64,000 nucleotides of DNA from Candidatus Competibacteraceae bacterium. GTDB taxonomy: Bacteria; Pseudomonadota; Gammaproteobacteria; Competibacterales; Competibacteraceae. The stretch lies in contig JAXMFU010000001.1 of assembly GCA_046347625.1 (NCBI GenBank), positions 671,512 to 735,511 of the forward strand. Reading direction: 5' to 3'. Each line of letters opens with the position of its first letter. Within the stretch, counting starts at the first letter, position 1. Shown in pieces: positions 11,927-62,012 of this stretch. The notes under the pieces were generated by a model. The model was not told the origin of the DNA. It did no database searches and saw only the letters and a program-made list of their open reading frames with translations. The position numbers and the translations under genes are program-made.

Positions 11927-12080
11927 GGCATTTTTCGCATTGACCTATGTAGTGTAAGTCTTTATAATATCGAACATACTTTTCAGTGTCAGTGGCATAA
12001 CAGTTCCGGTAGCCGAGCAAAAACAATGGTTGCAAGGCCGTTAATACAAGGGATGGAGCCACCCTTAGAATGGGTAGATA

Positions 12081-13240
<1,160 letters not shown>

Positions 13241-13261
13241 TCCTGTGGCCCTGTGTATTAA

Positions 13262-13576
<315 letters not shown>

Positions 13577-13614
13577 GCAACCACAGTGCTCCTACAGACA
13601 GGAGGGGATAAGAC

Positions 13615-14085: not shown

Positions 14086-14100
14086 TAGAGGACGGTAGTT

Positions 14101-14649
14101 ATGGCTGAAACGACAACCGTCGCCCGACCCTATGCCCGCGCCGCCTTCGAACAGGCTTTTGCGACGCAGGAATTAAAACGCTGGTCTGATCTGTTGCAAA
14201 CGGCTACGGTTGTCGCCGCCGATCCGTCCATGCGTAATCTGTTGGCCAGCCCGCAGGTGGGTTACCAGCAAAAAGCGGATTTGCTGCTCGATATTGCCGG
14301 CGGCGTCTGTCCCGAGGGAATTCCGGAGCAGGCGCGCAATTTTATTGTGCTGCTGGCACAAAATCGCCGCCTGGGCTTGTTACCGCCCATTGCCGCGCTA
14401 TTCGAGAGGCTGCGCGCCGAAGCGGAAAAGACGGTCGATGCCGAAGTCGTCAGCGCCTTTCCGGTCGATGATACGCAGCGTGACGAGATCACCCAGGGTC
14501 TGGAAAAACGCCTCAGGCGCTCGATTCTGCTGCATTGCAAAGTGGACGAGTCGCTGATCGGCGGTGCGATTATCCGGGCGGGTGATTTGGTTATTGACGG
14601 TTCCGTGCGTGGGCAGCTGCAACGACTTGGCGCTGTTCTGCAACAGTAA
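14101..14649 (+). CDS. atpH: F1 ATP synthase subunit delta.
   Basis: Operon position. The N-terminus [10 protein letters not shown] fits the OSCP/delta family. Confidence 0.85.
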
Positions 14650-14660
14650 CGGGGAAAACT

Positions 14661-16202: not shown

Positions 16203-16213
16203 GAAGGTGCGCC

Positions 16214-18494
<2,281 letters not shown>

Positions 18495-18541
18495 TGCAAA
18501 CGGACCCCCCGCAAGGGGGGTTCAGCGCTCGAGGTGACGCC

Positions 18542-18964
18542 ATGGCGATGACCATCCATGTAGATATTGTCAGTACCACTCGTGAAATCTTCTCCGGCCC
18601 GGTGACACTGGTGACGGCAACGGGCGAACTGGGTGAGCTGGGTATTCTGCCCCGCCATAGCCAGTTACTGACCCGGCTCAAGCCCGGGTTGGTCAAGCTG
18701 CGGATGCTGGATGGAGAAGAAGAGGTATTTTATGTATCCGGTGGCCTGATGGAGGTACAACCTCATGTGGTCACCATTCTGGCCGACACCGCCGAGAATG
18801 CGGGTAATCTGGACGAAGCGGCGGCCATGGAGGCCAAGCGGCATGCCGAACAGTTGATGGCCGACAAGCGCGGCGATTACGAATATGCCCGGGCCGAGGC
18901 CGAACTGGCGGAAGCCATTGCCCAGCTCAGGGCGATCGAGAAGCTGCGCAAGAAACGTCATTAA
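18542..18964 (+). CDS. atpC: F1 ATP synthase subunit epsilon.
   Basis: The N-terminus MAMTIHVDIVS is typical of epsilon. It is the last gene of the operon. Confidence 0.85.
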   Translation: MAMTIHVDIVSTTREIFSGPVTLVTATGELGELGILPRHSQLLTRLKPGLVKLRMLDGEEEVFYVSGGLMEVQPHVVTILADTAENAGNLDEAAAMEAKRHAEQLMADKRGDYEYARAEAELAEAIAQLRAIEKLRKKRH

Positions 18965-18979
18965 AGAGTCATTGTACTG

Positions 18980-20350
18980 ATGCCGCTAGCGGTCGTTATT
19001 CTTGCCGCCGGCAAGGGCAAGCGGATGGTATCCGACTTGCCCAAGGTGCTCCACCGGGTCGGTGGCAAGCCTATGCTGGTTCACGTCATCGAAACAGCGC
19101 ACAGCCTGGAAGCCGAGCGCTGTTTTGTCGTTTATGGCCATGGCGGTGAAGCGGTCAAGGCTGCCTTTGCCGGGCTGCCGGGAATCGACTGGGTGGAACA
19201 GGCCCAACAGTTAGGGACCGGTCATGCGGTAGGCCAGGCTTTGCCAAGCATCCCCGATCAGGATATCGTGCTGGTGCTCTATGGCGATGTTCCGCTGATC
19301 CAGGCCGAGACGCTGCGACCGCTGCTGGAGAGCGCCCATAAGGGCTATCTGGGCTTGCTGACGGTAGAACTGGACAATCCCACCGGTTATGGCCGGATTA
19401 TTCGTGATGCTACAGGCCAAGTGATTCGGAACGTCGAAGAAAAAGATGCGGCTGCCGAGCAACGGCTGATTCATGAGGTCAACACCGGCATTGTGGCGGT
19501 TCAGGCGCAACACCTGAAGGCCTGGGTGGCCGCACTGAAGAACGATAATTCGCAGGGTGAGTATTACCTGACGGACGTGATCGAACTGGCGGTGGGTGAA
19601 GGTATCGGCGTGGAAGCCTTCAGAGCCTATGCGCCGGAAGAAGTGCAGGGTGTCAACGATCGGCTGCAACTGGCCCAGTTGGAGCGCTATTATCAACGCC
19701 GCCAGGTGGAAGTGCTGATGTTGAGCGGCGTTACGTTGCTGGACCCGGCGCGGGTGGATATCCGCGGTACGGTAGTCGCGGGGCGGGATGTCGTGATCGA
19801 TGTCAATGTGATCCTGGAAGGCGAAATACGCCTGGGAGACCGGGTGATTATCGGTCCGTATTGCGTGCTGCGCGATGCCGTATTAGGCGACGATACCGAA
19901 GTGTTATCCCATTGCCGGATCGAGGAGGCACAGACCGGCAAGGGTGTGCATGTTGGCCCCTTTGCCCGCTTGCGGCCGGGTGCCCGGATTGCCGATGGGG
20001 CCAGAATCGGTAATTTCGTTGAAATAAAACAAGCTCTGATCGGGCAGGATTCCAAGGTCAATCATCTCACCTATATCGGCGATGCTGAAATCGGCGCCGA
20101 TGTCAATGTCGGCGCAGGTACGATTACCTGCAATTACGATGGCGTCAACAAACATAAAACGATAATAGAAGATCGAGTATTCGTCGGTTCCAATACGGCC
20201 CTGGTAGCACCGGTCAAAATAGGGGAGGGGGCGACTCTCGGTGCGGGTTCCACTATTACCAAAGATGTGCCGGCGGACAGTCTATCGCTGACCCGTGCGC
20301 CGCAGAAAACGATTACCGATTGGCAGCGGCCGAGTAAGAAGTCTTCTTGA
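18980..20350 (+). CDS. glmU: Bifunctional UDP-N-acetylglucosamine pyrophosphorylase / glucosamine-1-phosphate N-acetyltransferase.
   Basis: N-terminus LAAGKGKRM, with C-terminal hexapeptide repeats. Sits downstream of the atp operon. Confidence 0.9.
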
Positions 20351-32898: not shown

Positions 32899-32921
32899 GA
32901 AAACCTCTTTTCAGGAGGTTT
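32899..32921 (-). terminator. Hairpin plus T-run immediately downstream of the tRNA-like pair.
   Basis: Read on the minus strand: aaacctcctgaaaagaggttttc. Confidence 0.4.
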
Positions 32922-32988
32922 GGAGCGGGAATCGAACCCGCGTACATCGATTTGCAGTCGATTGCTCAACCAACTGAGCTATCCAAGG
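32917..32988 (-). tRNA. tRNA-like sequence with a GCA anticodon (Cys?). D-, anticodon and T-arms are canonical, but the first two acceptor pairs are mismatched and no CCA is encoded.
   Basis: GGATAGCTCAGTTGGTTGAGCA ATCGA CTGCAAA TCGAT GTAC GCGGGTTCGATTCCCGC. The acceptor pairs 5 of 7 positions. Confidence 0.4.
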
Positions 32989-33059
32989 AGATGAACATGG
33001 GAATCGAACCCATGACCCCGGGAGCTTCGTCCCGTGCTCTACCACTGAGCTAGATCACA
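32989..33059 (-). tRNA. tRNA-like sequence (Phe-like, GAA?). It has a 6-nt anticodon loop and an imperfect acceptor stem; it is probably a pseudo-tRNA.
   Basis: TAGCTCAGTGGTAGAGCA CGGGA CGAAGC TCCCG GGGTC ATGGGTTCGATTCCCAT. It abuts the next tRNA-like sequence with no spacer. Confidence 0.3.
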
Positions 33060-44934: not shown

Positions 44935-45125
44935 AGGTTCCCCTGTCGGGTTACGGCGCACCCGTAATGCTTCTGCTGTTTGCTTACTCGGTAGTGAGCG
45001 CGCCTAACCCGACCTATAGGATTTTTACAGCTCCTGGTTAGTTCCCCTGTCGGGTTACGGTGCGCCCGTAATGCTTCTGCTGTTGGCTTACTCGGTAGTG
45101 AGCGCACCTAACCCGACCTACAGCA
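44935..45125. repeat. Two tandem copies of an ~85-nt REP-like unit (cccctgtcgggttacgg(c/t)gc(a/g)cccgtaatgcttctgctgtt(t/g)gcttactcggtagtgagcgc(g/a)cctaacccgacc).
   Basis: Near-identical direct repeats whose ends contain the family-C core, gtcgggttacgg / taacccgac. Confidence 0.65.
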
Positions 45126-45152
45126 TTTTCACGGTAACGACGACACCAGCCC

Positions 45153-47554: not shown

Positions 47555-48412
47555 ATGAACAATATCAAGCTGTCACTGTTGCGCGGCATCTGCCAGATGC
47601 CGGCCTATGTGGCCTATGAGAAGGGGTTCCTGAAGGATGAAGGATTGGAAGCGACATTGGAAATTGTGGCTACGGCCTGGCTGGTGCCCGAGAAGCTGGC
47701 CAGCGGTGATTGTCAGTTTGCCGTAATGCCGTGGACGCGAGTTGCAGCGGCCGAACTGGAAGGACTGCCGTTGGTATTACTGGCCGGTTCGGGATATGAG
47801 GAGGCGGCGATTGTCCTGCGCAATGGGATTTCCCCGGCGGAGGTCAGTAAGGTGGCCATTCCGCTGCGCGGCGGCATCAAGGACCTGACGGCAATGGGCC
47901 TGATCAAGTCGCTTGGCTGGGAAAACGTCCAGCAGATTCGGCAGCCGTCCGGCGACGGCGCAATCATCGCGTTGTTCGGGCAGGGAGCGGATGCCGCCTC
48001 AATGGTGGAACCGTACGCGACGATGATGGAAGGGTTAGGCGTGGGCAAAGTGATCCGGCGCACGGGCGATTTGTGGAAGGGGGCGCCAGGATGTTCGTTG
48101 GCAACGACAAAACCGTTCAGAGATCGCACGCCCGATGTGGTGGAAGGTGTGGTGCGGGCGTTCGCGCGCGGGGTCCAGTTTGTGAAGGAGAACCCACAGG
48201 AGGCTGCGGAGATGGCGTCCCGTTACATCGGTGTCAACAGCCGGTTCATCTGCGCGGCGTTGAAGAACAACCAGCCCAACGTGGATGCTATCCGTAACTC
48301 TCGAGCGATGGCGGAAATTCTCGGGCTGATGCAGCAACTCGGATACATCCACACGCTCCCGACCGACTACGTGGATTTAAGTTTTCTCGACAAAGTCGGC
48401 GCCATTCAATGA
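47555..48412 (+). CDS. NMT1/THI5-like substrate-binding-fold protein (SsuA/TauA-like) with no obvious signal peptide.
   Basis: GYLKDEGLE ... LASGDCQFAVMPW pattern of the NMT1/ABC substrate-binding-protein fold. Confidence 0.55.
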   Translation: MNNIKLSLLRGICQMPAYVAYEKGFLKDEGLEATLEIVATAWLVPEKLASGDCQFAVMPWTRVAAAELEGLPLVLLAGSGYEEAAIVLRNGISPAEVSKVAIPLRGGIKDLTAMGLIKSLGWENVQQIRQPSGDGAIIALFGQGADAASMVEPYATMMEGLGVGKVIRRTGDLWKGAPGCSLATTKPFRDRTPDVVEGVVRAFARGVQFVKENPQEAAEMASRYIGVNSRFICAALKNNQPNVDAIRNSRAMAEILGLMQQLGYIHTLPTDYVDLSFLDKVGAIQ

Positions 48413-49941
48413 GGCTGGGACGGATCAGGCAACTGGTGCACTTGGCGGGCGGCTTCCGCCGGTTTCTGCAAACGCCGGTCAGCTACGATCAAGCTGTCGG
48501 CGATATTCGCCGGCGGCTGGAAAACCGTGACCGCGATTTCAGCGCACTCGCCCAGCGACTGATCTACGACATTCCGTCCAGCCCATACCGCAAGCTGCTG
48601 TTGTGGGCCGGCTGTGACTGGGCCGATCTGTGCGCGAACGTGAAAACGCACGGTCTGGAGAAGACACTGAAACAGCTTTGGGATGCCGGGGTGTACCTGA
48701 CGTTGGAGGAATTTAAGTCGGGTATTCCCATCAGTCGTCCTGGGTTGAACATCGAGACAGGCGAGAGCGACTTCGATAATCCGTTTCTGGGCAGTCACCG
48801 CCTCGAAGGCGCCACCAGCGGCAGCCGGGGGCGGAGCACGCGGGTAGCTTACGACTGGGAGTTCATCACCGAGGAGAGCGCGCACGAGCTGTTGTTATAC
48901 ACCATGCACGGTGTGCTGAACGCGCCGACCGCACTTTGGTTTCCCGTCCCGCCCGGCATCGCCGGCATCCATAACCTGCTGATGAACCTCAAAATGGGAA
49001 GCGTACCTGAAAAATGGTACTCACACACACCGACCGACGCCATGCTGTTGGAAGCGCGGCTGGCACTCCGGTTCATTCACTGGATGAGCAGTTCACCGCG
49101 CCCCGAATTCGTCGACCTCTCCCAGGTAGACCAGGTTGTTGCCTGGCTCGCCGGCGCCTGCGCGAAGCGCGGCATCGCTGTGGTACGGACGTACGGCAGT
49201 TCGGCCGTTCGCCTCGCTCAAACCGCATTGGCGTCCGGCGTTGACATCAGCGGCAGCATCCTGTTCGCCGGGGGTGAACCACTCACTGAACATCGCCGGT
49301 GCTTTATAGCGTCCACTGGCGCGAAGGTATTCCCGCGTTACATCACCACCGAAAGCGGTCTTGTCGGCGCCGCCTGCCCCCATCACAACGGGACCGACGA
49401 CATGCATTTATACAAGGATCGGCTTGCTGTGATCGAACGGGAGGAACGGTTGTTCTATACATCTTTGACCGCGCACGCCGGCAAGATCATGCTCAATACC
49501 GATTTGGGTGATTGCGGGGAACTCACCACCAAGCCTTGCAATTGCCTGTTCGGTGAGTTGGGATTTGACCAGCATCTGTCAAACGTGCGCAGTAACCAGA
49601 AACTGACGGTGGAAGGGATGACGCTGTTGGCTTCCGAGTTGTACCGCGCCATCAGTGTTGCCGTCGAGACCGCCGGGGGCGGGCCGGATTCGTACCAGAT
49701 CCGGCAGAAGCAGGATGAGAGTGGATTGAGCAAATTGGTGATCACCCTCAGCCCTGATGTCAGCGGCGTGGAGGAGGCGAAGCTGGTTGAAGCCGTACTC
49801 GCTCACCTCCAGCGGGGCCGGCCGGCCAGTGCGCTGGCGGCGGATGTCTGGCGGCAGGCGGCGACATTGCAGATCGTGCGCGAGCGGCCGCAGTTGAGCC
49901 GGGGGCACAAGCTGTTGCCGGCGATCGAGAAAGGAACGTAA
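48409..49941 (+). CDS. PaaK / F390-synthetase / CapK-like adenylate-forming enzyme (ANL superfamily).
   Basis: A P-loop-like ATSGSRGRST and ...YITTESGLVGAACPHHNGTDDMHLYKDRLAVIE. It is a paralog of the ORF at 53025-54566. Confidence 0.6.
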   Translation: MRLGRIRQLVHLAGGFRRFLQTPVSYDQAVGDIRRRLENRDRDFSALAQRLIYDIPSSPYRKLLLWAGCDWADLCANVKTHGLEKTLKQLWDAGVYLTLEEFKSGIPISRPGLNIETGESDFDNPFLGSHRLEGATSGSRGRSTRVAYDWEFITEESAHELLLYTMHGVLNAPTALWFPVPPGIAGIHNLLMNLKMGSVPEKWYSHTPTDAMLLEARLALRFIHWMSSSPRPEFVDLSQVDQVVAWLAGACAKRGIAVVRTYGSSAVRLAQTALASGVDISGSILFAGGEPLTEHRRCFIASTGAKVFPRYITTESGLVGAACPHHNGTDDMHLYKDRLAVIEREERLFYTSLTAHAGKIMLNTDLGDCGELTTKPCNCLFGELGFDQHLSNVRSNQKLTVEGMTLLASELYRAISVAVETAGGGPDSYQIRQKQDESGLSKLVITLSPDVSGVEEAKLVEAVLAHLQRGRPASALAADVWRQAATLQIVRERPQLSRGHKLLPAIEKGT

Positions 49942-50648
49942 TGGCGGTAACGTTTGATCCTGAATCGTGGAACCGTGTGTACGACAATCCGCACGATATC
50001 AAGGATTTCGTATTCCGGCGCGGCGCGGAACTGGCGCGTGACAGCTGTCGGGAACTCATCCGGTCCGGTCACCGCTGGTTGGACCTCGGGTGCGGAACCG
50101 GCCAGTTGATGCAGTGGCTGAGTGAAGCCGGCGCCTGCGTAGTGGGGGTTGATCATGACCTGCGGATGATCGAGTTCACCCGCCGGAAAGCGGGGGGAGA
50201 ACTGCGCGGGGTGGTCGCACAGGGCGAACGACTTCCCTTTGGCGATGCCACGCTGGATGGTGTGGTCGCCACCTCCGTGATGGGCTGCATCCCGGAGGCG
50301 AAGTGCATTTACGCCGAAATGTACCGCGTGTTGCGCCCGCACGGTTGTGCGGTACTGACCTTTACCAATCGGGCCAGTTGGTTGCTGAAACTCAACTACC
50401 TCGCCACCCGGCCCGGCGGCACGAAGTATTACCTTTATGATGCGGCTGGTGTGACCCGGGAATTGGAGGGACTCGGTTTCCAGGTCCTCCAAACGCGATT
50501 CTATAACTTCGTGCTCCGTGCAGGTGGTATGTTATTGCCGCCTCCGTCGCTGGCTCGGCGGCTCGATGGCCTGGGTCGGCACCTGTTCAGCAGACATTGG
50601 GCAAGAAACTTCATCGTCGTGGCGCAGAAACGCTCTGCGGTCAGGTGA
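49941..50648 (+). CDS. Class I SAM-dependent methyltransferase.
   Basis: Contains LDLGCGTGQL and RLPFGDATLDGVV (Methyltransf_11 motifs). Confidence 0.8.
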   Translation: MAVTFDPESWNRVYDNPHDIKDFVFRRGAELARDSCRELIRSGHRWLDLGCGTGQLMQWLSEAGACVVGVDHDLRMIEFTRRKAGGELRGVVAQGERLPFGDATLDGVVATSVMGCIPEAKCIYAEMYRVLRPHGCAVLTFTNRASWLLKLNYLATRPGGTKYYLYDAAGVTRELEGLGFQVLQTRFYNFVLRAGGMLLPPPSLARRLDGLGRHLFSRHWARNFIVVAQKRSAVR

Positions 50649-50796
50649 GTGGGAGCGTGCCTTCCCAGCCGCGCTCCAACAGTGGGCATCGAGCCTGGGA
50701 AGTGGCTTCGACTCGGCAGCGTTCGATTTGCAACATCGGCTTGTTCGCCTGCCGGACCGTATTATGCAAGGTAATGCCGGCGATCCCGCACAGGCG

Positions 50797-53028
50797 TCAA
50801 CCTCCCTTCGGGCGGACTGCCCGGACCGCTACGAAATAACCCGTCAACCAGCGCGTCGGCCAGCGTGCCAGCCGCTCCCACTGCATCAGTCCTTCCAGAA
50901 ATCGCTGCTGCCGCGCCGCGTCGCCACGCCGCTGCACTGCGGCGGCCCGTTTCACGGCCAACACCCGTGGACAGTGCAACAATGCGCCCATTCTTCCGAC
51001 CTCGAACCCGGTTTCATGCAACAGCCGCCGCAGTCGTCTCGGTCCGCAGGTGACACCCACCTGGTACGGCATCAGCCCGAGCCGGTGCAGTAGCGCAAAC
51101 GGCAGCAGGTTGCGGATGGCGACCAATGGATTCGCCGCATTGTCCAGGGTCAACAGCAGTTCTCCACCCGGTCGCAACACCCGCCGCAACTCCCGCAGGC
51201 TGCCGATCAATTCCTCCTCGGTCTGAAAATGATCCAACGTCGAGTTCGATACGATGACGTCGAATACGCCATCGGTGAACGGTAACTGACGGACATCCGC
51301 GCCGATGCCCGTTCGGGCGGCCTGCACGGTGGTCAATGCGATATCGATGCCGACCACGAACCGGGCGCGGGAGACGAGTTCCCCGTATAGACCTCCGCCC
51401 ACCGCTTCGTCGAACAGGTCCGTCTTCAACACCCGTTCCACCGGCCGTTGCGGCCACCATGACGCCAGCCATTGTCGGTTCACCGCGTCGCTGTGCGCGC
51501 GCCAGAGCTTATCGGGTTGCGCCTGTCGCCAGTCAGCACCGACCTTGTCCCAATAAAGGAGATCGTCCGATACCGACGGTTTCGTCCCCGTTACCAGCGA
51601 CCAGGCCAATGCAATCTCGCGCCGACTGAACTCGCCCAGTACCAGATATCCGACCAGTACCAACAGCGAGAGGGCTACCAGCTTCACCACCAGCATTATC
51701 CCGCTCGCCGGCCAGAGCGTCGCCAGCGCAAAGGTACCAGTACACAACAGTACGCTGCGCCCTAAAGAGGCCGCTGGCGGCGCCACGCGCCATAACCGCC
51801 GGACCGCTCCCACGGCCAATGCCGCGCCGCACACCGTCAGGCCGGTCGTCACTACCGCCGCTCCCATGGCGCCAAAGGGTGGAATCAGCAACAGATGCCC
51901 GACCAGTCCCAGTGGTACCAGTGGCCCGGCAATGATGAAGGTCCAGTTTGCCTTTCCTCCCGCCGTCAGGATGCCATTCGTCACCCCCAACAAAACTCCC
52001 GCCACCGCACCGAAAATCAATACCGCCAGCAGCGGTCCGGCCGCGGCGAACTGCACCCCGGCGATCAGCCGCACGATCTCACCGGCCGCCCCGGCGCTCA
52101 ATCCCGCCAACGGCAGCAGCAGTAACACTAACCGCATCGCATCGCGCGCCATGAGGTGGGCGTGTTGTTCCCGGCCATCGCGCAACAGCCGCGTCAGCGT
52201 CGACAGCAGCAGCGGCGAGAGTGACGCCGCAAAAATCCCAAACACCACCGTCAAGTTCTGCGCCATGCCATAGATACCGGCCTGTGCGGCAGTCGCACCG
52301 AGCGCTTTCAACATCAACAAATCCAACTTGTCGAACACGCGCAGCGCCATCGCACACAGAAACAACGGTACTACCGCCTCCCACAACCGCCGTACCGGAA
52401 AATCCGCCGGGCCGAACAGCGCAGGACGGATGAACCGGCGGGCGATGGCCAACTCGATTACCGACGTGCCGATGCTGGCGACAATCGCGCCATTGACGGA
52501 GAACCCTGCCAGCCCGACCAGCGCCAGGACCAACACCAGCCGCACCGTCCAGCGGACGGCACTCAGCCAGGCGCGTTGACGGAATCCGCCGGTGCCGATC
52601 AAGATATTGCGGTGGGCGTGCGCGAGGCTGAAGAGCGGAATATCGATAGCGAACAAGCGCAGATACCCGGCCAGGGTCGGTTCGTCCAACAGGGCGGCAA
52701 TCGGCCCGGCCAGCGCCACCAGCAGCACGGCGCACGCGACGCTGACGCCCAGGTGCAGCCGCACCACCAGCGTGCCCACGGGCCGCCAGTCCGACACTTC
52801 GGCGATACACTTATACGTGGCGCGCGCGAATATCGCCGTGATGGTCCATTCGATCCAGGTGACCAGCGTTATCGCCAGCGTGAACAAGCCGTACCCGTCT
52901 GCACCGAGCCGCCGTGTCAACACTACCGTCGCGATCAGACCGGCTGGCAGGATCAATGCTTCGGCGAGGAACACGCGGACCGTGCCGTCCAGAATACGGT
53001 GGCCTGCGGCTGAAGGTCTAGGCTTCAT
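50797..53028 (-). CDS. Fusion protein: an N-terminal Wzx-like polysaccharide flippase (MOP/PST family, about 480 aa, roughly 12-14 transmembrane helices) joined to a C-terminal class I SAM methyltransferase domain.
   Basis: Long hydrophobic N-terminal portion. The C-terminal VVGIDIALT ... LPFTDGVFDVIVSNSTLDH ... LRPGGELLLT are methyltransferase motifs. Confidence 0.7.
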   Translation of the reverse strand: MKPRPSAAGHRILDGTVRVFLAEALILPAGLIATVVLTRRLGADGYGLFTLAITLVTWIEWTITAIFARATYKCIAEVSDWRPVGTLVVRLHLGVSVACAVLLVALAGPIAALLDEPTLAGYLRLFAIDIPLFSLAHAHRNILIGTGGFRQRAWLSAVRWTVRLVLVLALVGLAGFSVNGAIVASIGTSVIELAIARRFIRPALFGPADFPVRRLWEAVVPLFLCAMALRVFDKLDLLMLKALGATAAQAGIYGMAQNLTVVFGIFAASLSPLLLSTLTRLLRDGREQHAHLMARDAMRLVLLLLPLAGLSAGAAGEIVRLIAGVQFAAAGPLLAVLIFGAVAGVLLGVTNGILTAGGKANWTFIIAGPLVPLGLVGHLLLIPPFGAMGAAVVTTGLTVCGAALAVGAVRRLWRVAPPAASLGRSVLLCTGTFALATLWPASGIMLVVKLVALSLLVLVGYLVLGEFSRREIALAWSLVTGTKPSVSDDLLYWDKVGADWRQAQPDKLWRAHSDAVNRQWLASWWPQRPVERVLKTDLFDEAVGGGLYGELVSRARFVVGIDIALTTVQAARTGIGADVRQLPFTDGVFDVIVSNSTLDHFQTEEELIGSLRELRRVLRPGGELLLTLDNAANPLVAIRNLLPFALLHRLGLMPYQVGVTCGPRRLRRLLHETGFEVGRMGALLHCPRVLAVKRAAAVQRRGDAARQQRFLEGLMQWERLARWPTRWLTGYFVAVRAVRPKGG

Positions 53029-54566
53029 CCTGGCGCCGGGATGATTGGAAGATGTTTGCCGCGCTTGGTCAGTTGCGGTTCGGCGCGAATGACTTCGAGC
53101 AACCCGCTCTGTTTCCAGATCTGTGCCGAGAACTTGCCAGAGCCGTGTGCACGGCTAAGCGTGTCGAGCACGGCGCGGATAAACTGCGCTTCGTCCAGGT
53201 TTTCGAGACGGGGATGAATCGCCACCTTGAGGCGGGTCAGTTCACCTTGACCGTCGGTTTCCCAGAACTGGTAATCGTCAGGGCTGCCCCCCAGTTGCTC
53301 GATGAGCGCACCGATGATCTCGTCGAGATCGGTGGCGAGGATCGCCATCCCTTCACCGGTCAGCTTGTCCCGGCTACGAACGTTGACGACGTGGGTTTCC
53401 ATGCCCAAATCACCAAACGCGCAACTGCACCGGCGCGTCACCAGCGCACCGGTATCGCCGATGTCGGTGTTGAAAAGAACCTTACCGGTGTGTGGCGACA
53501 ATGATGTGAACAGGAAGCTTTCCGCCCGCTGAATCACCGCCAAGCGGTCGACGTAGATGTGCATGTCGTCGGCGCCGGTCCGGTACGGGCAAGCCGCGCC
53601 GATCAAGCCGGCCTCCGTTGCCGAGTAGCGTGGAAATACCCGCGCGCCGGTCGCTTCGATGAAGCGGCACCGGCGTTCGGTCAATGGTTCTCCAGCGCTT
53701 AAGATCACGCTGCCGCTAATGTCGAGCCCACGTTCATGCGCAGCTTGGGCCAGGCGCACGGCGGAACTGACATAGGTTCTGAGCAGCGGTGGTCCGACTT
53801 TTCTTTTTGTCGTCGCAATCCATTCAGCAACCCGACCGGCGTGGCTGAAATCCGCAAATTCGGGCCGGGGAAGCGGCTGCCCCAGCAGCCGGCAGCAGCC
53901 AAGCAGGTACTCCATTGCCAGCCGGTGCCTTGACAGCAAACCGCCAGCCTTCCAGTCGGTCTGCGAAAACCATTGCAGCGGCACGCGCCGAAACCGGACA
54001 TTCATCATCGCGCTGCTAACGCCGGCAATCGCCGGCAGCGTCGGTAACCACAACACCAGCGGTGCCGTGCGGACGCCGTGCAGTTCATTGAGAATCAATT
54101 CGTTGGCCGCCTGCTCGTGGAACAACGCCCAGTCATATACCACCCGCGAACCGTGCGAGCGGCTACCACTGGTTGTCGCTTCGAGACCGGTGGCCGTGAA
54201 AAATGGGTTATCGAAATTATCCTCACGCGGTTGCAGCCACAGCCCGGAACGCTGGATGGGCGTGCGCGCCTTGAATTCGGCCAACGACACGTATACGCCG
54301 GCATCGCGCAACTGCGCCAGCGTTGGCTCCAGCCCGTGTCGGCGGACGTTTTGTGCCAAATCACCGTACTCGCACCCGGCCCACGCCAACAAGGCGCGAT
54401 ACGGACTCGAGGGGTTGCCGTAGATATGCGTCTGCGCCAGGCGTAGAAACCGGCCGGCTCGGTCGGCCAGCCGCAGTTTAAGCGCCGCGACGGCTTCGGC
54501 ATAATTCAGCGGCCGGCGGATGAAGGCCGGCAATCCCCATGCCAGGCGCGCCAGTTGCCCAATCAC
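53025..54566 (-). CDS. Second PaaK/CapK-like adenylate-forming enzyme. The start was re-set to a GTG that overlaps the upstream stop (GTGA).
   Basis: Aligns along its whole length with the 48409-49941 protein (SSPYR.LL.WAGC, ATSGSRS.GSRV.YDW, FPRY..TE.GL.GAACP). The 589-aa ORF as listed would overlap the ALDH gene by 230 nt. Confidence 0.6.
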   Translation of the reverse strand: MIGQLARLAWGLPAFIRRPLNYAEAVAALKLRLADRAGRFLRLAQTHIYGNPSSPYRALLAWAGCEYGDLAQNVRRHGLEPTLAQLRDAGVYVSLAEFKARTPIQRSGLWLQPREDNFDNPFFTATGLEATTSGSRSHGSRVVYDWALFHEQAANELILNELHGVRTAPLVLWLPTLPAIAGVSSAMMNVRFRRVPLQWFSQTDWKAGGLLSRHRLAMEYLLGCCRLLGQPLPRPEFADFSHAGRVAEWIATTKRKVGPPLLRTYVSSAVRLAQAAHERGLDISGSVILSAGEPLTERRCRFIEATGARVFPRYSATEAGLIGAACPYRTGADDMHIYVDRLAVIQRAESFLFTSLSPHTGKVLFNTDIGDTGALVTRRCSCAFGDLGMETHVVNVRSRDKLTGEGMAILATDLDEIIGALIEQLGGSPDDYQFWETDGQGELTRLKVAIHPRLENLDEAQFIRAVLDTLSRAHGSGKFSAQIWKQSGLLEVIRAEPQLTKRGKHLPIIPAPG

Positions 54567-56374
54567 TGGTAAATCGCCTGAATGCGGGTGTACACCGCGC
54601 GATTGCTGCGGCCATGTTCGGGAGGGCCGATGCCGGACGCTTTCCAGCCACCGAACGGCGCTTCCGCATCCGCATCGGCGGTGGCGCGATCGAGCTTCAG
54701 GATACCGGCCTGGGCCGTTTCGAGAAATCGCGCCTGCCGCTCCGCCGACCGGCTGAACAGTGCCGCCACCAGACCGTGGCGCACCCCGTTGCACAAGCGC
54801 AAGGCGTCCTCGAAGTCGCGCGCCGGTTGCACGACCAGCACGGGGCCAAACGTTTCTTCCTGTACGATCTCGGCGGCCGGATTGTCACATTGAATGACCG
54901 TCGGCGGAAAATACCCCGGCATCGGGTCCGCCGGGCCTTGCAAGAGCAGTCCACCGGTACGCGCCACCAAGGCGGCCACTTGATCGCGTTTGGCCGTCGA
55001 GATCAATGTGCCGACATCGGTCCGCGGATCCAGCGTGGCCACCGCCCGGTGCAGATGTTCGAGAAACGCATCCCGGCAGGCCGTGTCGAGGATTACCCGC
55101 CGGTTCGCCGTGCAGCGCTGCCCGGCAAAACCGAACGCCGCTTCGGCCACCGCCGTGGCGGCGGCCGCCAAGTCCGTATCCGACCAGACGATGGCGGCGT
55201 TATTGCCGCCCAGTTCGGCCTGCAACGGTACGCGGCGTTGCGCACAGATCACCTGTGCCGTCCAACCGGCCGCCTCCGAGCCGGTCAAGACCACGGCGTC
55301 GACGGCAGGGTCGGCCATCAACCGTTCGGCAACCGTAGCGTCGCCGTTCACCAGGTTCACCACGTCCGGCGGTATACCGGCTGTTTCGAGCAAAGCCATC
55401 AGCCGGACGGCAATACCCGCCGCGGCTGGAGCCGGTTTCCAGACCACCGTGTTGCCATAGAGCAGCGCCGGTGCGAGCCGGCCGACGGGGATGGCGACCG
55501 GGTTATTCCACGGCGTGATGACGGCGATCACCCCGCGCGGACACCGGCGCTCGCGGGAGTGCTCGCCGCACGGTGCTTCCCACGGCTCGCGCGCATACCG
55601 AATCGCGGCGTCGATGAGTGCCACGCTGCGTTCGAGTTCGGCATTACCGTACCGGAGCGGTTTATGAATCTCCGCCACCATCTGTCTGGCTAAGGCCGGC
55701 GACTCCGCCTCGATCAGCGCCGCCAGCCGGATGAGCATCTCGGCGCGATCGTTCAGCGACAGCTTGCACCAGGCGTACCCGGCATGTCGTGCCTTGGCTG
55801 TAGCGCATGCCACGTCCACCCGTTCATCGGCAATGGCGCCGCCGGGTAATCGATCCGCCGGGACAAACTGGACCGCGCGGGCTTCCAGGTACCGGTGCGT
55901 CACGGCGGCATGCAACGGGTCTTCACTGCCGACGGCATCGGCGACAATCCAGACTGTCCACCCACGTTGATAGGCGTCGAGCGCGGTGGCGCGTATGCAG
56001 CTTTGAAGTTGCACGCCCGCCAGCCAGAGGGTGTCGATTCCGCCAGCGCGCAGCACCGTGTCCAATGAGCCATCGACGAACGCACTGAAGCCGGTTTTGT
56101 GCAGCACGGTTTCGGACGGCCAGGGCGGCAACGGCGAGGCATGTCCGGCCGTGCCGTCGACACATATCCATTTACCGTCGCGTTGCCAGTGCGGCATCCG
56201 GTCGTCCGGCTCACGGTGTACCGTGGTCCGGACATGAATGACCGGGATGGCCGCCGCGCGGCAGCGCTCGAGCAGTTTTGCCACCCGGGCGATCAATTCA
56301 CCCGTCGTCGGTTGGAGTGCGGGTGAGTCCAGGTAATCCTGCTGCAGATCGACGAGCACCAGCGCTGGTTTCAT
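54563..56374 (-). CDS. Fusion of an N-terminal isochorismatase-like cysteine hydrolase domain with a C-terminal aldehyde dehydrogenase domain.
   Basis: N-terminal ALVLVDLQQDY and ...CIRATALDAYQRGW. C-terminal ELGGNNAAIV and the catalytic FAGQRCTANRR. Confidence 0.75.
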   Translation of the reverse strand: MKPALVLVDLQQDYLDSPALQPTTGELIARVAKLLERCRAAAIPVIHVRTTVHREPDDRMPHWQRDGKWICVDGTAGHASPLPPWPSETVLHKTGFSAFVDGSLDTVLRAGGIDTLWLAGVQLQSCIRATALDAYQRGWTVWIVADAVGSEDPLHAAVTHRYLEARAVQFVPADRLPGGAIADERVDVACATAKARHAGYAWCKLSLNDRAEMLIRLAALIEAESPALARQMVAEIHKPLRYGNAELERSVALIDAAIRYAREPWEAPCGEHSRERRCPRGVIAVITPWNNPVAIPVGRLAPALLYGNTVVWKPAPAAAGIAVRLMALLETAGIPPDVVNLVNGDATVAERLMADPAVDAVVLTGSEAAGWTAQVICAQRRVPLQAELGGNNAAIVWSDTDLAAAATAVAEAAFGFAGQRCTANRRVILDTACRDAFLEHLHRAVATLDPRTDVGTLISTAKRDQVAALVARTGGLLLQGPADPMPGYFPPTVIQCDNPAAEIVQEETFGPVLVVQPARDFEDALRLCNGVRHGLVAALFSRSAERQARFLETAQAGILKLDRATADADAEAPFGGWKASGIGPPEHGRSNRAVYTRIQAIYQ

Positions 56375-57516
56375 GCAGGGTTCGATTCCCGGTAAAGCGC
56401 GAACACGATGTCCGCGACCAACTCACCCATTTCACGGGTTCCGACCAGGCGTCCACCCAACTCCATCAAATCAGCCGTCCGCCAGCCTTGACGCCAGACT
56501 TGGTGCACGGCCCGTTCGATCGCATCGGCGGCATCGCTGAGACCGAAGCTTTCACGCAGCAACATCGCCACGGAAAGGATCTGGCCGGCCGGGTTTGCCA
56601 CATTCTTGCCGGCCAGGTCGTAGGCGGCGCCATGGTTGGTTTGATACGCCGCCGCGGCGCCGGGGGCAAAGTTGCCGGAGTAGGCCAATGCCCGCGACCC
56701 GAGTAATACCGCGCTTAGGTCGGCCAGCACATCGCCGAAAAGATTCGGCGCCACGATGACATCGAAGTCCCGGGCATGCTGAATCACACAATACGCGGCA
56801 TAATCGACGTTCAGCAACTGTAACTCGATACCCGCCGCGGCGGTAATTTCCAGCGCGCAGTCACGCCATAATTCGCTGATGGTCGGGATGCCGGCGTCTT
56901 TGTAGATGACCGTTAACCGGCCCCGGCGCCGACGGGCGATGCCGGCGGCGGCTTCGAGGATACGCCGCACGTCGGTTTCGGCGTAGGAAAAGTTGTGATT
57001 GGCCACGCGCGTTCCATCGGCTCGAGTGGTTTCGCTCCATTGGCCTTGGTAAATCCCACCGGCATTGTCGCGGATGATGATCAAATCCACGTTATCGCAG
57101 TATTCCGGTTTGAGCCGCGCCGTCAGGCGCAGTGCCGGGTCGGTTCGGACCGGGACAATTTTACAAAACAGATCGAACCGCCGGCGGAGGTCGTAGACGA
57201 AGCGGCCGCCGCCGGCGCCGTGCAACAGGGCGCCCCCATCGGCAAACACGTGACGGCAAAAATTCTCCACTTCAGCCGTCAGAGCGGCACCATGGGCCTG
57301 CTCGGCGGCGGTACCGATCAAGCCGCCGCGGCGAATAATAAAGCTGTATGGGCTGATGGTCTCCAGCGCCTGCAACACGGTGAGACCGGCACCGACGACT
57401 TCCGAGCCGACGCCTTCGCCGTCGAGCACGCCCACCAGATAGTGGCCATTGGAAGGCGACGGTTGGCGCTGACGACCGGGGATACAATCACTCCAGGTTT
57501 TGGCTTCAGGGTACAT
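56371..57516 (-). CDS. Isocitrate/isopropylmalate-dehydrogenase-family beta-decarboxylating dehydrogenase.
   Basis: NLFGDVLADLSAVLLGS is the signature of the IDH/IMDH family. Confidence 0.7.
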   Translation of the reverse strand: MYPEAKTWSDCIPGRQRQPSPSNGHYLVGVLDGEGVGSEVVGAGLTVLQALETISPYSFIIRRGGLIGTAAEQAHGAALTAEVENFCRHVFADGGALLHGAGGGRFVYDLRRRFDLFCKIVPVRTDPALRLTARLKPEYCDNVDLIIIRDNAGGIYQGQWSETTRADGTRVANHNFSYAETDVRRILEAAAGIARRRRGRLTVIYKDAGIPTISELWRDCALEITAAAGIELQLLNVDYAAYCVIQHARDFDVIVAPNLFGDVLADLSAVLLGSRALAYSGNFAPGAAAAYQTNHGAAYDLAGKNVANPAGQILSVAMLLRESFGLSDAADAIERAVHQVWRQGWRTADLMELGGRLVGTREMGELVADIVFALYRESNPA

Positions 57517-57562
57517 GCTGGCTTGTAGGTAATGTTATCTGGATGGCGTTATCTGGATGGCG

Positions 57563-59125
57563 CTATGCCTGGTGCGGATAGACGCCGGTCCATTGGGCCA
57601 ACTTCACTTCAAGGGGAAACTGGTGGAAACGTTTTTTCACCCGCAGGTAGGCAAGCGGATAATAAATCGAGGCAAGCAGACGAACGAGCCAATGAGTTTT
57701 CTTGTACGGCGTGACGAAGTTATTACGGATGGCCAGCGCCGAGGTGAAATGCAACATCCGAATGAGACTTTTCTGGTCGGCCGATAACCAGGGCGCGTAA
57801 CGATTGACGGTGCTGAAGTTGAAACTCACCCATTCTTCCAGCGCGGCGGGGACTTTCAATCCGTGCTGCACGGCGAGATCGAAATCGGCCATACCAGGGA
57901 ACGGGGTGAAGACGTTAAGGCGGGGGACCGCCGCCGGGTTGTCGGCGGCGAGTTGGAGGAAGAGATCGACGGTCTGGGCCAGTTCCTCCTGGGTCTCGGT
58001 GGGAATGCCCATCATGAAGAAATAATGCGGTCGGATATCGAAGCGGGCGAGGCGCCGATTGAAGCGTACGATGGCCGGGATGTCCTGCGGTTTGTTCAAT
58101 AACCCCAGGATGCGCGGGGACGCGGATTCGATCCCGATCATTAACCGCGTACAGCCGCCGTCGCGCAGGATTTGCAGTTCGGCGTCGGACAAGGCAGTCA
58201 GCACGGCGCTGTGGCCGTCGACTTTGGCACAATCGATGCCGAGGTTGAGTTCCTTGAGTTGCCGGAAAATGGCGAGAGCGCGTTCTTTCTTCCCGAAGAA
58301 GTTGTCGTCGGTGAAGATAAAATGCCGAATGCCGTACTCGTTGACGATGCGCTGGAGCCGCCGCACGGTCTCTTCGACGGAGAGCGCGCGCCAGGTGCTA
58401 TGGTAGGCGGCGGTGTTGTAACAGTACTGACAGTGGAACGGGCAACCCCGACTGGTTTCCAGGCTCAGGTGCGGTATGCCGGAAATCAACGGCATATAGT
58501 TGCGGATATCCACCAGATGATAGGCCGGAAACGGTTGTACGTTCAGGTCGATCAATGGCCTCGGCCCGGTCGAACGTGGAGTTCCGTCCGGTTTGTACCA
58601 GACTCCGCGTACCCCGCCCAGCGGCGCGCCGGTCTCCAGGGCCTGCACCAGTTCGAAGAATGTTTCCTCGCCTTCACCTTGTACCACAAGGTCGATGTGC
58701 TCATGGCGCAGCGTCTGTTCCGGCATCAAGGTGGGATGGATACCGCCCCAGACTACCGGTACGGAACTGTGTTGTTTCACCAGGCGGGAGGCTTCCAGCG
58801 CCGAGCGAATCTGCGGTCCGGTCATGGAGGTGACGCCAACACAAACCGGCTCGCGGCGCAGCTCCTCCAGGAGCAACTCGCGCCAGCGGCTTTCCAGCCG
58901 CTGATCGATAATGCGCACGTCGTAACCCGCCCGGTCCAACGGAGTTCCAATCGCCAGCAGACCTTGCGGCAACTCGACACGCGGCTGGACCGCACCGCCA
59001 AATCGATGGGCCGGCTGGAATAATACGATTCGTCGTGAAGTACGTTGATTCATGGTCGTCGGATTCATCGCCAATGCAGCGGTATCGCCCAGGCACGTGT
59101 GGAGCTGGTATACATAGTCACCCAC
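57563..59125 (-). CDS. B12-binding radical SAM protein. The true start is probably the internal Met near 59068.
   Basis: An N-terminal B12-binding region, then the CPFHCQYC radical-SAM cysteine triad. Confidence 0.8.
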   Translation of the reverse strand: MGDYVYQLHTCLGDTAALAMNPTTMNQRTSRRIVLFQPAHRFGGAVQPRVELPQGLLAIGTPLDRAGYDVRIIDQRLESRWRELLLEELRREPVCVGVTSMTGPQIRSALEASRLVKQHSSVPVVWGGIHPTLMPEQTLRHEHIDLVVQGEGEETFFELVQALETGAPLGGVRGVWYKPDGTPRSTGPRPLIDLNVQPFPAYHLVDIRNYMPLISGIPHLSLETSRGCPFHCQYCYNTAAYHSTWRALSVEETVRRLQRIVNEYGIRHFIFTDDNFFGKKERALAIFRQLKELNLGIDCAKVDGHSAVLTALSDAELQILRDGGCTRLMIGIESASPRILGLLNKPQDIPAIVRFNRRLARFDIRPHYFFMMGIPTETQEELAQTVDLFLQLAADNPAAVPRLNVFTPFPGMADFDLAVQHGLKVPAALEEWVSFNFSTVNRYAPWLSADQKSLIRMLHFTSALAIRNNFVTPYKKTHWLVRLLASIYYPLAYLRVKKRFHQFPLEVKLAQWTGVYPHQA

Positions 59126-59271: not shown

Positions 59272-60507
59272 TTACCTGCGGTGAGCGGCTGAAGTCGCCC
59301 TGATTTTCTCGATTAGCGTGAGGTAATGTTGCAGATGGACTTCCGCCGTCCATTTCGCCTGATAAGCCCGGTATGCAGCGTAACCCAGATCATCCCGGAG
59401 CGCCTTGTTCTCCAGCAATCGCTCCATCGCAGTCAGCAGTTCCGACTCGTTCGTATAGCTGAAACCACCGCCGCTCTCTGCGATCAGCTCCGGCATCGCC
59501 CCTAAATTTCTGACAATCACCGGCGTTCCTTGTTGAAAGGCTTCCAGAATTACCAGCGGGCAAACTTCGAACCATAGGGAGGGCACGATCAGTGCCATCG
59601 CCTGCTGATAGCAGGCTTGCAACCGGCCGGCCGATAGATGACCCAGAAAGCGGATGTTAGTGCTGCCGTCGGCCAACCGCCGTAAGAAGGGTTCGTAATC
59701 ACCGGTACCGGCAATCAGCAGGCGCGCCCGCGAATAATTCCGGAAAAGAGGAATAAGCGTTTGCACTCCTTTGATTTTTTCCAAACGCCCTACATAGAGA
59801 AAATAGGGCACTTCCATGCTATCCCCCACCCATTCCGTTCCTGGTACTGCCGGTTCTTCGGAAATGAAATTGGGCAGATGTACGCCTGGCAGCTCGAGTC
59901 CTCTTTGCCGCAGAGTCTGTGCGCTGAAAAGGCTGGGTGCAATCAGGGTATCCACATGCGCCAGCATTCTCTCTAAAAGTCTGCCATAGCGCCACCATTG
60001 CGGCGGGCGCTTATGGACCAGTGTGCAGGGCAGACAAGTGGGATGCGCGCAGACCGCTCGGTTGAATTTGAACAGCACATGGGCAGGGCAGACCAGCCAG
60101 TAATCATGCGTTGTCAGGAGCTTGATACCCTGGCCATAGGCCAGTATCCCTGGACCACCGACTAAAGAAATGTTGTGATAATGGATGACGTCGAAACCTT
60201 TTTGCAGGATCGACTGGATACGGGCCCGCTTGAAAAAGGGGAGTCCGGTCTGTTGCGTGGCCAGAGGAGACAGTGGACCGAAGCGGCTCCTGAGTCCATG
60301 GATTGTTACATTGGGGTGGTCGTCATAGGTACCTGCCGGCTCCCGTCCCGCCAGCAGTAAATAGGAATCGATACAGTGGATTACCTCCACCTGATGCCCG
60401 CGCCGCGCCAGTTCGTTGCTCAGGCGGCGCACGAAAATCCCGTCTCCACCGAAGTTATAGGGAGGATAGAAGGTAGTAATCATGCAGAAGCGCAGTGACG
60501 TTCTCAT
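59272..60507 (-). CDS. Family 4 glycosyltransferase.
   Basis: The N-terminus MITTFYPPYNFGG and the C-terminal EVCPLVILEAFQQGTPVI form the GT4 fold. Confidence 0.8.
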   Translation of the reverse strand: MRTSLRFCMITTFYPPYNFGGDGIFVRRLSNELARRGHQVEVIHCIDSYLLLAGREPAGTYDDHPNVTIHGLRSRFGPLSPLATQQTGLPFFKRARIQSILQKGFDVIHYHNISLVGGPGILAYGQGIKLLTTHDYWLVCPAHVLFKFNRAVCAHPTCLPCTLVHKRPPQWWRYGRLLERMLAHVDTLIAPSLFSAQTLRQRGLELPGVHLPNFISEEPAVPGTEWVGDSMEVPYFLYVGRLEKIKGVQTLIPLFRNYSRARLLIAGTGDYEPFLRRLADGSTNIRFLGHLSAGRLQACYQQAMALIVPSLWFEVCPLVILEAFQQGTPVIVRNLGAMPELIAESGGGFSYTNESELLTAMERLLENKALRDDLGYAAYRAYQAKWTAEVHLQHYLTLIEKIRATSAAHRR

Positions 60508-61115: not shown

Positions 61116-62012
61116 ATGGATATGATCCTGAATTTTGCGCCGACCGGCATGATTCCAACCAAACAGATGACGCCTTATGCAGCTGTCGGCATTCAGGAAA
61201 TTATCGAAGATGTGCATGCCGCCTATGAACTGGGCATCACCCTCGTCCACCTCCATGCCCGGGACGAGGTGACCGAAGAGCCAACGTATAGGGCCGACGT
61301 GTACGCGAAGCTCATCGAGGGTATCCGCGAATTTTCCAAGGATCTCATCGTCTGCGTTTCCCTCAGTGGGCGCACCTTTCAGGAATTCGAAAAACGAGCC
61401 GCGCCGCTTCAACTTGATGGCGATCTCAAGCCGGACATGGGAAGCCTGACGCTCAGTTCGGTCAATTTTCCCCAGGTAGCCAGTGTGAATTCCCCGCAAA
61501 TGATTCAAGCCCTGGCCACCGAGATGCAACGACGCGGCATTCTGGCGGAATTGGAGGTCTTCGACGTGGGCATGATCAATTATGCAAAGTATCTGGAAAG
61601 CAAGGGCTTATTGCAACCGCCGCATTATTTCAATCTGCTGCTGGGCAGTATCGCCGGTGCCCAGGCCGATCTACTGCCTGCCGGCCTCATGATTCGCGAT
61701 CTACCACCGGGTTCCCTGTGGAGTTTTGCCGGCATCGGTGACGATCAACTGACAATGAACGCACTGGCCGTCGCCGCCAGCGGCGGCGTGCGCGTCGGCC
61801 TCGAGGACAATATCTGGTATGACCGCGGCCGCACTCGGCTGGCGCGCAATATCGACCTGGTGCGTCGTATCCACCAGTTGGCGGAGGTCTTGGAACGACG
61901 GATCATGCCACCCCAGGAACTCAGGCGATGCTTGCAACTCGAGGCAGGCAACGGTCGTTATGGCCGCCGCAGCGCCATGGCAGCGAATGCGAAGGCGCCG
62001 GCGATCGCTTGA
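61116..62012 (+). CDS. BKACE-family (DUF849) beta-keto-acid cleavage enzyme; 3-keto-5-aminohexanoate-cleavage-enzyme-like.
   Basis: N-terminus MILNFAPTGMIPTK, TIM-barrel length, and a GLEDN motif. Confidence 0.75.
   Translation: MDMILNFAPTGMIPTKQMTPYAAVGIQEIIEDVHAAYELGITLVHLHARDEVTEEPTYRADVYAKLIEGIREFSKDLIVCVSLSGRTFQEFEKRAAPLQLDGDLKPDMGSLTLSSVNFPQVASVNSPQMIQALATEMQRRGILAELEVFDVGMINYAKYLESKGLLQPPHYFNLLLGSIAGAQADLLPAGLMIRDLPPGSLWSFAGIGDDQLTMNALAVAASGGVRVGLEDNIWYDRGRTRLARNIDLVRRIHQLAEVLERRIMPPQELRRCLQLEAGNGRYGRRSAMAANAKAPAIA

Follow-up and report, generated by a model that had tools for sequence, protein, structure and literature searches.

Four consecutive minus-strand genes at positions 50797-57516 of a 64,000-nucleotide stretch of Candidatus Competibacteraceae DNA (GenBank assembly GCA_046347625.1, contig JAXMFU010000001.1, positions 671,512 to 735,511; the whole stretch is called the window below) are joined to each other by three 4-nt start-stop overlaps. 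They encode a divergent dehydrogenase of the isocitrate/isopropylmalate family (Iso_dh; gene 1), a fusion of an isochorismatase-like cysteine amidohydrolase with an aldehyde dehydrogenase (ALDH; gene 2), a PaaK-like adenylate-forming enzyme (gene 3) and a fusion of a Wzx-type (Polysacc_synt) flippase with a class I S-adenosylmethionine (SAM) methyltransferase (gene 4, or Wzx-MT). The genes lie on the same strand, the spacers are short or negative, promoter and terminator signals in the interior do not exceed the level of shuffled sequence, and the gene order is conserved elsewhere; judged from these sequence features, the four genes are almost certainly co-transcribed and serve one pathway. 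The unit is probably a real polycistronic operon, but an architecturally ordinary one. We also consider it probable that genes 1-3 constitute a mobile, widely conserved cassette.

Gene 1 (56371-57516, 381 aa) terminates in an ATGA at 56371-56374 (junction 1, context cctgcATGAaacc), with which gene 2 begins (54563-56374, 603 aa; amidohydrolase in residues 1-175, ALDH in residues 185-603). Gene 2 terminates in a GTGA at 54563-54566 (junction 2, context accaGTGAttgg), shared with the start of gene 3 (53025-54566, 513 aa counted from the GTG), and the ATGA at 53025-53028 (junction 3, context ccaggATGAagcc) contains both the stop of gene 3 and the start of gene 4 (50797-53028, 743 aa). The initial annotation of this DNA had claimed precisely these overlaps, and they were read in the sequence at 56374-56371, 54566-54563 and 53028-53025. 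Its four gene names (IMDH-like dehydrogenase, isochorismatase-ALDH fusion, PaaK-like enzyme, flippase-methyltransferase) agree with the domain models and, for gene 3, with the PaaK fold.

Overlaps of this kind could be annotation artefacts, which corrected start codons would abolish, as the initial annotation itself had allowed. In favor of this explanation one may note that gene 3 begins with GTG in a reading frame open to 54794, and that other in-frame starts are available 15-54 nt downstream of the proposed ones. Nevertheless, a gene-by-gene comparison with homologue N-termini keeps all four starts. The N-terminus of the gene 2 product (M1-K-P, 'MKPAL...') is invariant in 13 diverse homologues, and PDB entry 3eef aligns with it from its own residue 1. 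As for gene 3, the inspected homologues begin 0-5 residues ahead of the conserved QLARxAWG motif, the paralogue encoded in the window at 48409-49941 aligns from residue 2, and a close relative (locus L136, see below) has ATG(A) at the exact position of the window's GTG(A); the only in-frame start upstream, at 54794, would add 76 residues that find no support in any homologue. Wzx-MT homologues align with the gene 4 product from residues 1-3, and a W-S/E-D motif located N-terminally to the catalytic core of the gene 1 product is conserved in six orthologues from other phyla. Choosing the downstream alternatives would remove conserved residues. The two gene callers are concordant, an independent one having returned the same four boundaries on each of two separate Logan assemblies of this organism, and the 513-aa gene 3 product is also present in the NCBI annotation of the Candidatus Competibacteraceae metagenome-assembled genome (MAG). 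Because the start codons of all four genes are thus backed by homologue N-termini, the overlaps stand, with the true starts placed, by sequence comparison, at the tetranucleotides; an artefact is very improbable.

The overlaps themselves teach us nothing new, as 4-nt overlaps are the default junction of compact operons. An ATGA or GTGA tetranucleotide taken alone is weak evidence, since any TGA stop codon preceded by A or G yields one. Overlaps occur in about 15% of the co-directional gene pairs surveyed in 720 genomes, most commonly with a length of 4 nt (PMC6728339). Within the 64-kb window, a 4-nt overlap is possible at 6 of 31 same-strand junctions and a 1-nt overlap at 3 of 31, this baseline being derived from our own crude codon-usage gene calls; elsewhere in the window atpI and atpB overlap by 4 nt, gidB and parA by 1 nt. 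We infer that, in a genome with several thousand genes, three such junctions in succession are nothing unusual.

The conserved part of the unit was delimited in other genomes. Species-representative genomes were scanned with the PaaK-like family, using as a query an alignment of 9 sequences (a 28-sequence alignment was too diverse), and 46 loci were obtained, all in MAGs and from many phyla. In a metagenome scan with the fusion family, 80 loci were analysed of 435 relatives. Of the 72 loci with enough upstream sequence, 65 have Iso_dh immediately ahead of the fusion. Collapsing of 86 fusion proteins at 90% identity gave 72 clusters, 62 of them with Iso_dh directly upstream, and junction 1, with starts projected from alignments as in our other junction tallies, measures -4 nt in 35 of these 62 clusters. 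The remaining ones have -26 or -22 nt (11 clusters), -1 nt (3) or 0 to +19 nt (13), so that overlaps of any length are found in 49 of the 62. The neighbouring genes were likewise tallied from tblastn projections. Spacing between genes 2 and 3 elsewhere ranges from -19 to about +95 nt. In 36 of 71 loci the next gene downstream of the fusion codes for an adenylate-forming enzyme, 14 of these enzymes being PaaK-like and 22 being adenylation-thiolation-thioesterase (A-T-TE) proteins of the nonribosomal peptide synthetase (NRPS) type, and in about 20 further loci an A-T-TE protein is encoded elsewhere in the locus. The A-T-TE proteins, of ~910 aa, contain the Pfam domains AMP-binding, PP-binding and Thioesterase and pass the amino-acid-adenylation model. 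They differ from the gene 3 product by the presence of a carrier protein and a thioesterase and are absent from the window, but since in 22 loci it is they that follow the Iso_dh-fusion pair, where the window has gene 3, they are its probable functional analogues. In many soil and peat metagenome loci (e.g., L060, 3927-6677, and 21 others), the Iso_dh-fusion pair is followed by A-T-TE often with a 4-nt overlap. The adenylation domain of the A-T-TE proteins has 'FGAS' in place of FDxS; as the protein nevertheless passes the amino-acid-adenylation model, this specificity code was set aside as evidence.

Genes 1, 2 and 3 occur together in loci L004, L005, L007, L010 and L136, and genes 2 and 3 on the shorter contigs L006 and L043. 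The order Iso_dh-fusion-ANL, where ANL is the family of adenylate-forming enzymes, was found in Myxococcales and Phycisphaerae/Anaerohalosphaeraceae MAGs, and shorter contigs of Deltaproteobacteria and Thermoanaerobaculia carry the fusion followed by ANL. The surroundings vary: in a Myxococcales MAG the three genes alone form an operon flanked by opposite-strand genes; in a Verrucomicrobia genome the cassette lies beside a Rieske oxygenase and a two-component system; in locus L053 it stands among Wza, Wzc and Bac_transf genes; and a locus of Thermodesulfovibrionia (L055) reads GT4, ANL, Iso_dh, fusion, GT2 (GT denoting a glycosyltransferase of the numbered family), with a Wzx gene and a fragment of a beta-keto acid cleavage enzyme (BKACE) gene (3670-3795) nearby. 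Altogether, the cassette spans at least ten phylum-level lineages; all of its named sources are MAGs or uncultured bacteria, and the database names are generic. A literature search of a searchable library found no paper on the gene 2 fusion, on its enzyme combination or on the cassette.

All four genes in the order of the window were found only in the close relative L136, of 86-87% identity, in which junctions 2 and 3 are both ATGA. Its junction 1 is split by an insertion of 96 nt (~1249-1344, corresponding to window position ~56392), so that Iso_dh is 5 residues shorter and is separated from the fusion by a gap of 107 nt. The insertion is built of nested inverted repeats, resembles miniature inverted-repeat transposable elements (MITE) or repetitive extragenic palindromes (REP), and folds at -35 kcal/mol (z = -2.6); a search of the window for this palindromic element found no copy. 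The overlap at junction 1 is ancestral yet not indispensable, because L136 has lost it to this insertion.

The initial annotation concluded from the overlaps that the genes are translationally coupled. Such coupling is what textbook rules lead one to expect of -4 overlaps (PMC6728339). Experiments on 14 overlapping pairs demonstrated that -4 and -1 overlaps result in tight translational coupling (PMC6728339), and the junctions discussed here share with the coupled pairs described by Huber et al. (2019, PMC6728339; 2023, PMC10666635) the same-strand ATGA/GTGA overlaps of 4 nt, in which the start of the second gene lies inside the first. The Shine-Dalgarno (SD) motifs are different: most pairs of the 2019 survey have them, while here the SD:anti-SD duplexes at the three internal starts are weak, the best reaching -4.3, -2.9 and -1.7 kcal/mol as compared with the threshold of -8.4 kcal/mol for a 'strong' SD (PMC6728339; an assumed anti-SD sequence was used rather than one taken from this genome). 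At none of the three junctions does the 3'-terminal part of the upstream gene contain a strong SD motif, a feature that is typical of coupled pairs though not obligatory for them. Many other genes of the window have equally weak SD pairing. Weak internal SD motifs fit termination-reinitiation rather than independent initiation, and we regard termination-reinitiation coupling as fairly likely at junction 1 and as less likely at junctions 2 and 3. The coupling claim thus retains its ground in the -4 overlaps and the weak SD motifs, but not equally for the three junctions, as only the overlap of genes 1 and 2 is evolutionarily conserved and appears to be under long-term selection.

Alternatively, the overlaps may be neutral by-products of genome compaction and of the drift of starts and stops, in which case the genes would be initiated independently and the overlaps would have no regulatory meaning. 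The frequency of such overlaps both in the window and in general, as given above, agrees with this explanation, as do the variability of junctions 2 and 3 among loci and the tolerance of an insertion at junction 1 of the relative. At the same time, genes 1 and 2 overlap in 79% of the 62 clusters, which are diverged and come from many phyla, and this exceeds the expectation for drift alone; strong SD motifs are missing from the internal starts, and the experimentally tested pairs proved to be tightly coupled. For these reasons we consider the neutral origin unlikely, and termination-reinitiation at junction 1 remains our preferred explanation.

A more far-reaching claim of the initial annotation was that the four proteins join in a stoichiometric multi-enzyme assembly, with the overlaps serving to balance their ratios. 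The strong conservation of the gene 1/gene 2 overlap speaks for such an assembly, and the fused nature of gene 2 hints at channelling of an unstable intermediate. Tight spacing does not imply an assembly, though: among E. coli pairs spaced by -8 to +10 nt, only 30% encode subunits of a complex and about 70% do not (PMC10666635). Also contrary to it are the variable gene 2/gene 3 junction, the 22 loci in which an A-T-TE protein of unrelated architecture takes the place of gene 3, the polytopic membrane nature of the gene 4 product, which is not conserved with the cassette, and the loss of the gene 1/gene 2 overlap in the relative. We therefore find the four-protein assembly improbable, and a complex of the gene 1 and gene 2 proteins alone is a tentative possibility. 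The accompanying claim, that the operon makes one product, holds insofar as the genes are almost certainly co-transcribed and belong to one pathway. Gene 4, according to the comparison of loci, lies outside the conserved cassette and appears to be lineage-specific.

The limits of the operon were drawn arbitrarily when it was described as a four-gene one. Gene 1 is preceded on the same strand by a gene of a B12-binding radical SAM enzyme (57563-59125, minus strand; Pfam B12-binding and Radical_SAM), probably of the methyltransferase class, which scores below the cut-off of every NCBIfam equivalog, and this gene is preceded, at a distance of 146 nt, by a gene of a GT4-family glycosyltransferase (59272-60507, minus strand; Pfam Glycos_transf_1 and Glyco_transf_4), which may be the first of the unit. 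We consider five or six genes more probable than four, because the spacer between the stop of the radical SAM gene and the start of gene 1 is short (46 nt in the window and 18 nt in L136) and contains no promoter- or terminator-like consensus. Most likely, then, the unit runs from the radical SAM or the GT4 gene to the Wzx-MT gene. Promoter-like sites were noted at 60568-60541 and 59264-59235, and none, nor any terminator-like site, was found in the 46-nt gap or in the region after the last gene. The hits of the promoter and terminator scan, including the terminator-like ones inside genes, were no more numerous than in shuffled sequence, the 3' spacer folded no better than its shuffles (z = -0.9), and an Rfam scan detected neither a riboswitch nor a leader in the locus, its only matches being two tRNAs that lie elsewhere. 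Most of the spacer between the radical SAM gene and Iso_dh is filled by 2.4 tandem copies of the 14-mer GCCATCCAGATAAC (57534-57566; Tandem Repeats Finder score 59), a repeat that is unique within the window and absent from L136; it may have arisen by recent slippage or may act as a binding site.

As to the individual enzymes, the gene 1 product belongs to the Iso_dh family (PF00180, 229.5 bits at a cut-off of 27). It shares with LeuB and isocitrate dehydrogenases (PDB 3u1h, 1v5b) the fold, the Pfam family and the motifs with the catalytic Tyr and Lys and the metal-binding Asp: its GGIYQG, YKDAG, VDYAA and NLFGDVLAD segments align with the motifs of 3-isopropylmalate dehydrogenase (IPMDH) that carry the catalytic Tyr, Lys and Asp. 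We considered the assignment of gene 1 as LeuB itself and rejected it, as the score against the LeuB model TIGR00169 (215.8 bits) is below the cut-off of 353.2 and the Arg of 'ANLRP' is replaced. More specifically, the protein reads 'DLFCKIVP' where IPMDH reads 'DLFANLRP', with Val instead of the substrate-binding Arg. The motif DLFCK..P or DLFFK..P was found in 105 of 120 homologues, none of which has Arg at that position; the subfamily signature may be written as 'DLFCK(L/I/F)xP'. Because the canonical Arg is replaced and never occurs in the 105 motif-bearing homologues, the sequence implies a substrate different from that of IPMDH. The protein also differs from LeuB by an N-terminal extension of ~27 residues, in which all seven aligned orthologues have the W-S/E-D motif and 64 of the 120 homologues a looser form of it, and by a context other than leucine biosynthesis. 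Proteins of this type are often called '3-isopropylmalate dehydrogenase' in the databases, a name that is probably wrong.

The N-terminal domain of the gene 2 product should be regarded as a cysteine amidohydrolase rather than as a true isochorismatase, because the triad D9/K93/C126 is invariant in 13 fusions, in alignment with the positions of PncA/CSHase-type enzymes. This Asp-Lys-Cys triad is common to the isochorismatase-like hydrolases (PncA, 1im5; N-carbamoylsarcosine amidase, 1nba; RutB), from which the gene 2 protein differs by its fusion to an aldehyde dehydrogenase. The latter domain (PF00171, 345 bits) has invariant N290 (WNNP), E387 (ELGGNN) and C421 (QRCTANR). The architecture of this fusion is represented by at least 120 protein clusters, all with generic names, and the nearest named ALDH models are those of catabolic semialdehyde dehydrogenases, all well below their cut-offs.

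Neither gene 3 nor its paralogue in the window, to which it is 47% identical (48409-49941), produced a Pfam or NCBIfam match, even at E=10, and the only sequence match of gene 3 in the PDB was 9s3l (E 8.5e-4). The AlphaFold2 model of the protein (pLDDT 91), compared with the PDB by Foldseek, has PaaK1 (2y27; E 1.3e-17, probability 1.00), BT_0428 and NatL2 as its top matches, with E from 1e-17 to 1e-14. According to this model, the label 'PaaK-like' is correct at the level of the fold. With the PaaK-family AMP ligases (PaaK1, 2y27; BT_0428, 4rvn; NatL2, 6siw) the protein shares the two-domain fold (TM 0.59/0.69), the P-loop, the hinge and the C-terminal Lys, but it is only ~15% identical to them, ~80 residues longer and, unlike them, invisible to Pfam and NCBIfam. 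The P-loop TSGSRS, YxxTE, the hinge RSxDK and the C-terminal K504 are conserved, and with these motifs in place gene 3 is predicted to encode a carboxylate-adenylating enzyme. The family alignment also contains an invariant Cys326 and a Cys380-x-Cys382, the CxC aligning with 'CSCG' of 9s3l; these cysteines could be a candidate metal site.

The flippase domain of gene 4 matches PF01943 (Polysacc_synt) with 40.6 bits against a cut-off of 28.2, and its locus contains glycosyltransferase genes, as is the case for Wzx proteins. Like the Wzx flippases (MOP superfamily) of O-antigen and exopolysaccharide (EPS) loci, it has the Polysacc_synt domain and a locus with GT2 and GT4 genes; it differs from them in the fused C-terminal SAM methyltransferase. 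The flippase-methyltransferase architecture of ~740 aa was found in at least six representatives, of 36-80% identity, which are a minority among the homologues. Homologues of the methyltransferase domain adjoin ANL-family genes in loci L012, L023, L025, L029, L041 and L091; the last has the order Iso_dh, membrane protein, fusion, ANL, methyltransferase, with the stand-alone methyltransferase overlapping the ANL gene by 4 nt.

Taken as a whole, the locus encodes GT2, GT4 and GT1 glycosyltransferases, a hexapeptide acyltransferase, BKACE, Wzx and further methyltransferases, and by this gene content it is predicted to direct the biosynthesis of a Wzx-type glycan, either EPS or O-antigen. In this setting the following scheme may be proposed. 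The gene 1 protein, a 2-hydroxyacid dehydrogenase of the Iso_dh type with an altered substrate pocket, would together with the gene 2 protein convert a small precursor to a carboxylic acid by oxidising a hydroxyacid (optionally with decarboxylation), hydrolysing an amide and oxidising an aldehyde. The gene 3 protein would turn this acid into an acyl-adenylate for transfer to an acceptor, in this locus probably one of the sugars in the lipid-linked repeat unit. Of the two domains of the gene 4 protein, the methyltransferase would modify the repeat unit and Wzx would flip it to the other side of the membrane. At the -4 overlaps, translation of each downstream gene would probably depend on termination of the upstream one, i.e., on termination-reinitiation. 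We hold the sequence of acid formation (genes 1 and 2), adenylation (gene 3), attachment to a sugar, and methylation with flipping (gene 4) to be a reasonably likely scheme as a whole.

Several points weigh against this interpretation. The carboxylate-then-adenylate logic is drawn from gene neighbourhood only; the cassette occurs outside glycan loci as well, so attachment to a sugar would be specific to the context; the junction tallies use projected starts; the metagenomic loci may be phylogenetically non-independent beyond the 90% clustering; and the overlap at junction 1 is dispensable, at least in the short term, as is seen from the insertion in L136. A different function can also be imagined, namely a role of genes 1-3 in the catabolism or salvage of an amide or aldehyde, their location beside unrelated glycan genes being incidental. 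The catabolic semialdehyde dehydrogenases as the closest named ALDH models (though far below the cut-offs), the solitary cassette of the Myxococcales genome and the Rieske oxygenase and two-component system adjoining that of Verrucomicrobia are in line with such a function. It is at odds with the consistent linkage of the cassette to adenylate-forming enzymes, including the NRPS-type A-T-TE proteins, with its recurrence within glycan loci and with its overlap with the Wzx-MT gene in the window, and we consider a catabolic role quite improbable in comparison with the biosynthesis of an adenylated acid.

Other features of the window deserve mention. Convergent to the unit lies a module (47555-50648, plus strand) of genes for an NMT1/THI5-like binding protein, a PaaK-like enzyme (ANL1) and a methyltransferase, with an ATGA and a 1-nt overlap of its own; its NMT1-like protein has no obvious signal peptide. 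The order of binding protein and ANL is conserved in L003, L008, L012 and L013 (Nitrospirae, Phycisphaerae and Desulfobacteraceae MAGs), and more distant NMT1-like genes were observed beside ANL genes in six other loci; the second ANL copy of the window belongs to a different conserved module, the one with the NMT1-like protein. The BKACE gene is located at 61116-62012 (plus strand). The G+C content is 0.63-0.66 over genes 2-4 (window positions 50001-56000) versus roughly 0.50-0.61 elsewhere in the window, which is compatible with horizontal acquisition of the cassette. Immediately 5' of an aroB-like gene at 45153, a unit of 104 nt is repeated 1.9 times with 93% identity (44937-45129). Two tRNA genes at 32917-33059 (minus strand) abut without a spacer. 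Finally, the region 9605-20350 contains gidB (rsmG), parA and parB and, after them, F-type ATP synthase genes (atpI and those of the a, c, b and delta subunits were identified), an arrangement typical of the origin-proximal region of the chromosome.

The value of this operon lies in its content: a three-enzyme cassette and a family of PaaK-fold ligases of ~515 residues unrecognised by Pfam and NCBIfam. It is conceivable, at somewhat less than even chances, that they represent a widespread undescribed pathway, in which Iso_dh, the fusion and the adenylase make a new acyl block, destined for glycans where the adenylase is PaaK-like and for A-T-TE enzymes in other genomes, and in which the 4-nt overlap reflects an obligate pair of genes 1 and 2. 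Competibacteraceae are abundant glycogen-accumulating bacteria of wastewater sludge, and if the cassette makes a non-sugar acyl substituent of their exopolysaccharide, this would bear on the chemistry of the polymer; if the same precursor feeds NRPS-like enzymes elsewhere, it would be an unrecognised building block of natural products.

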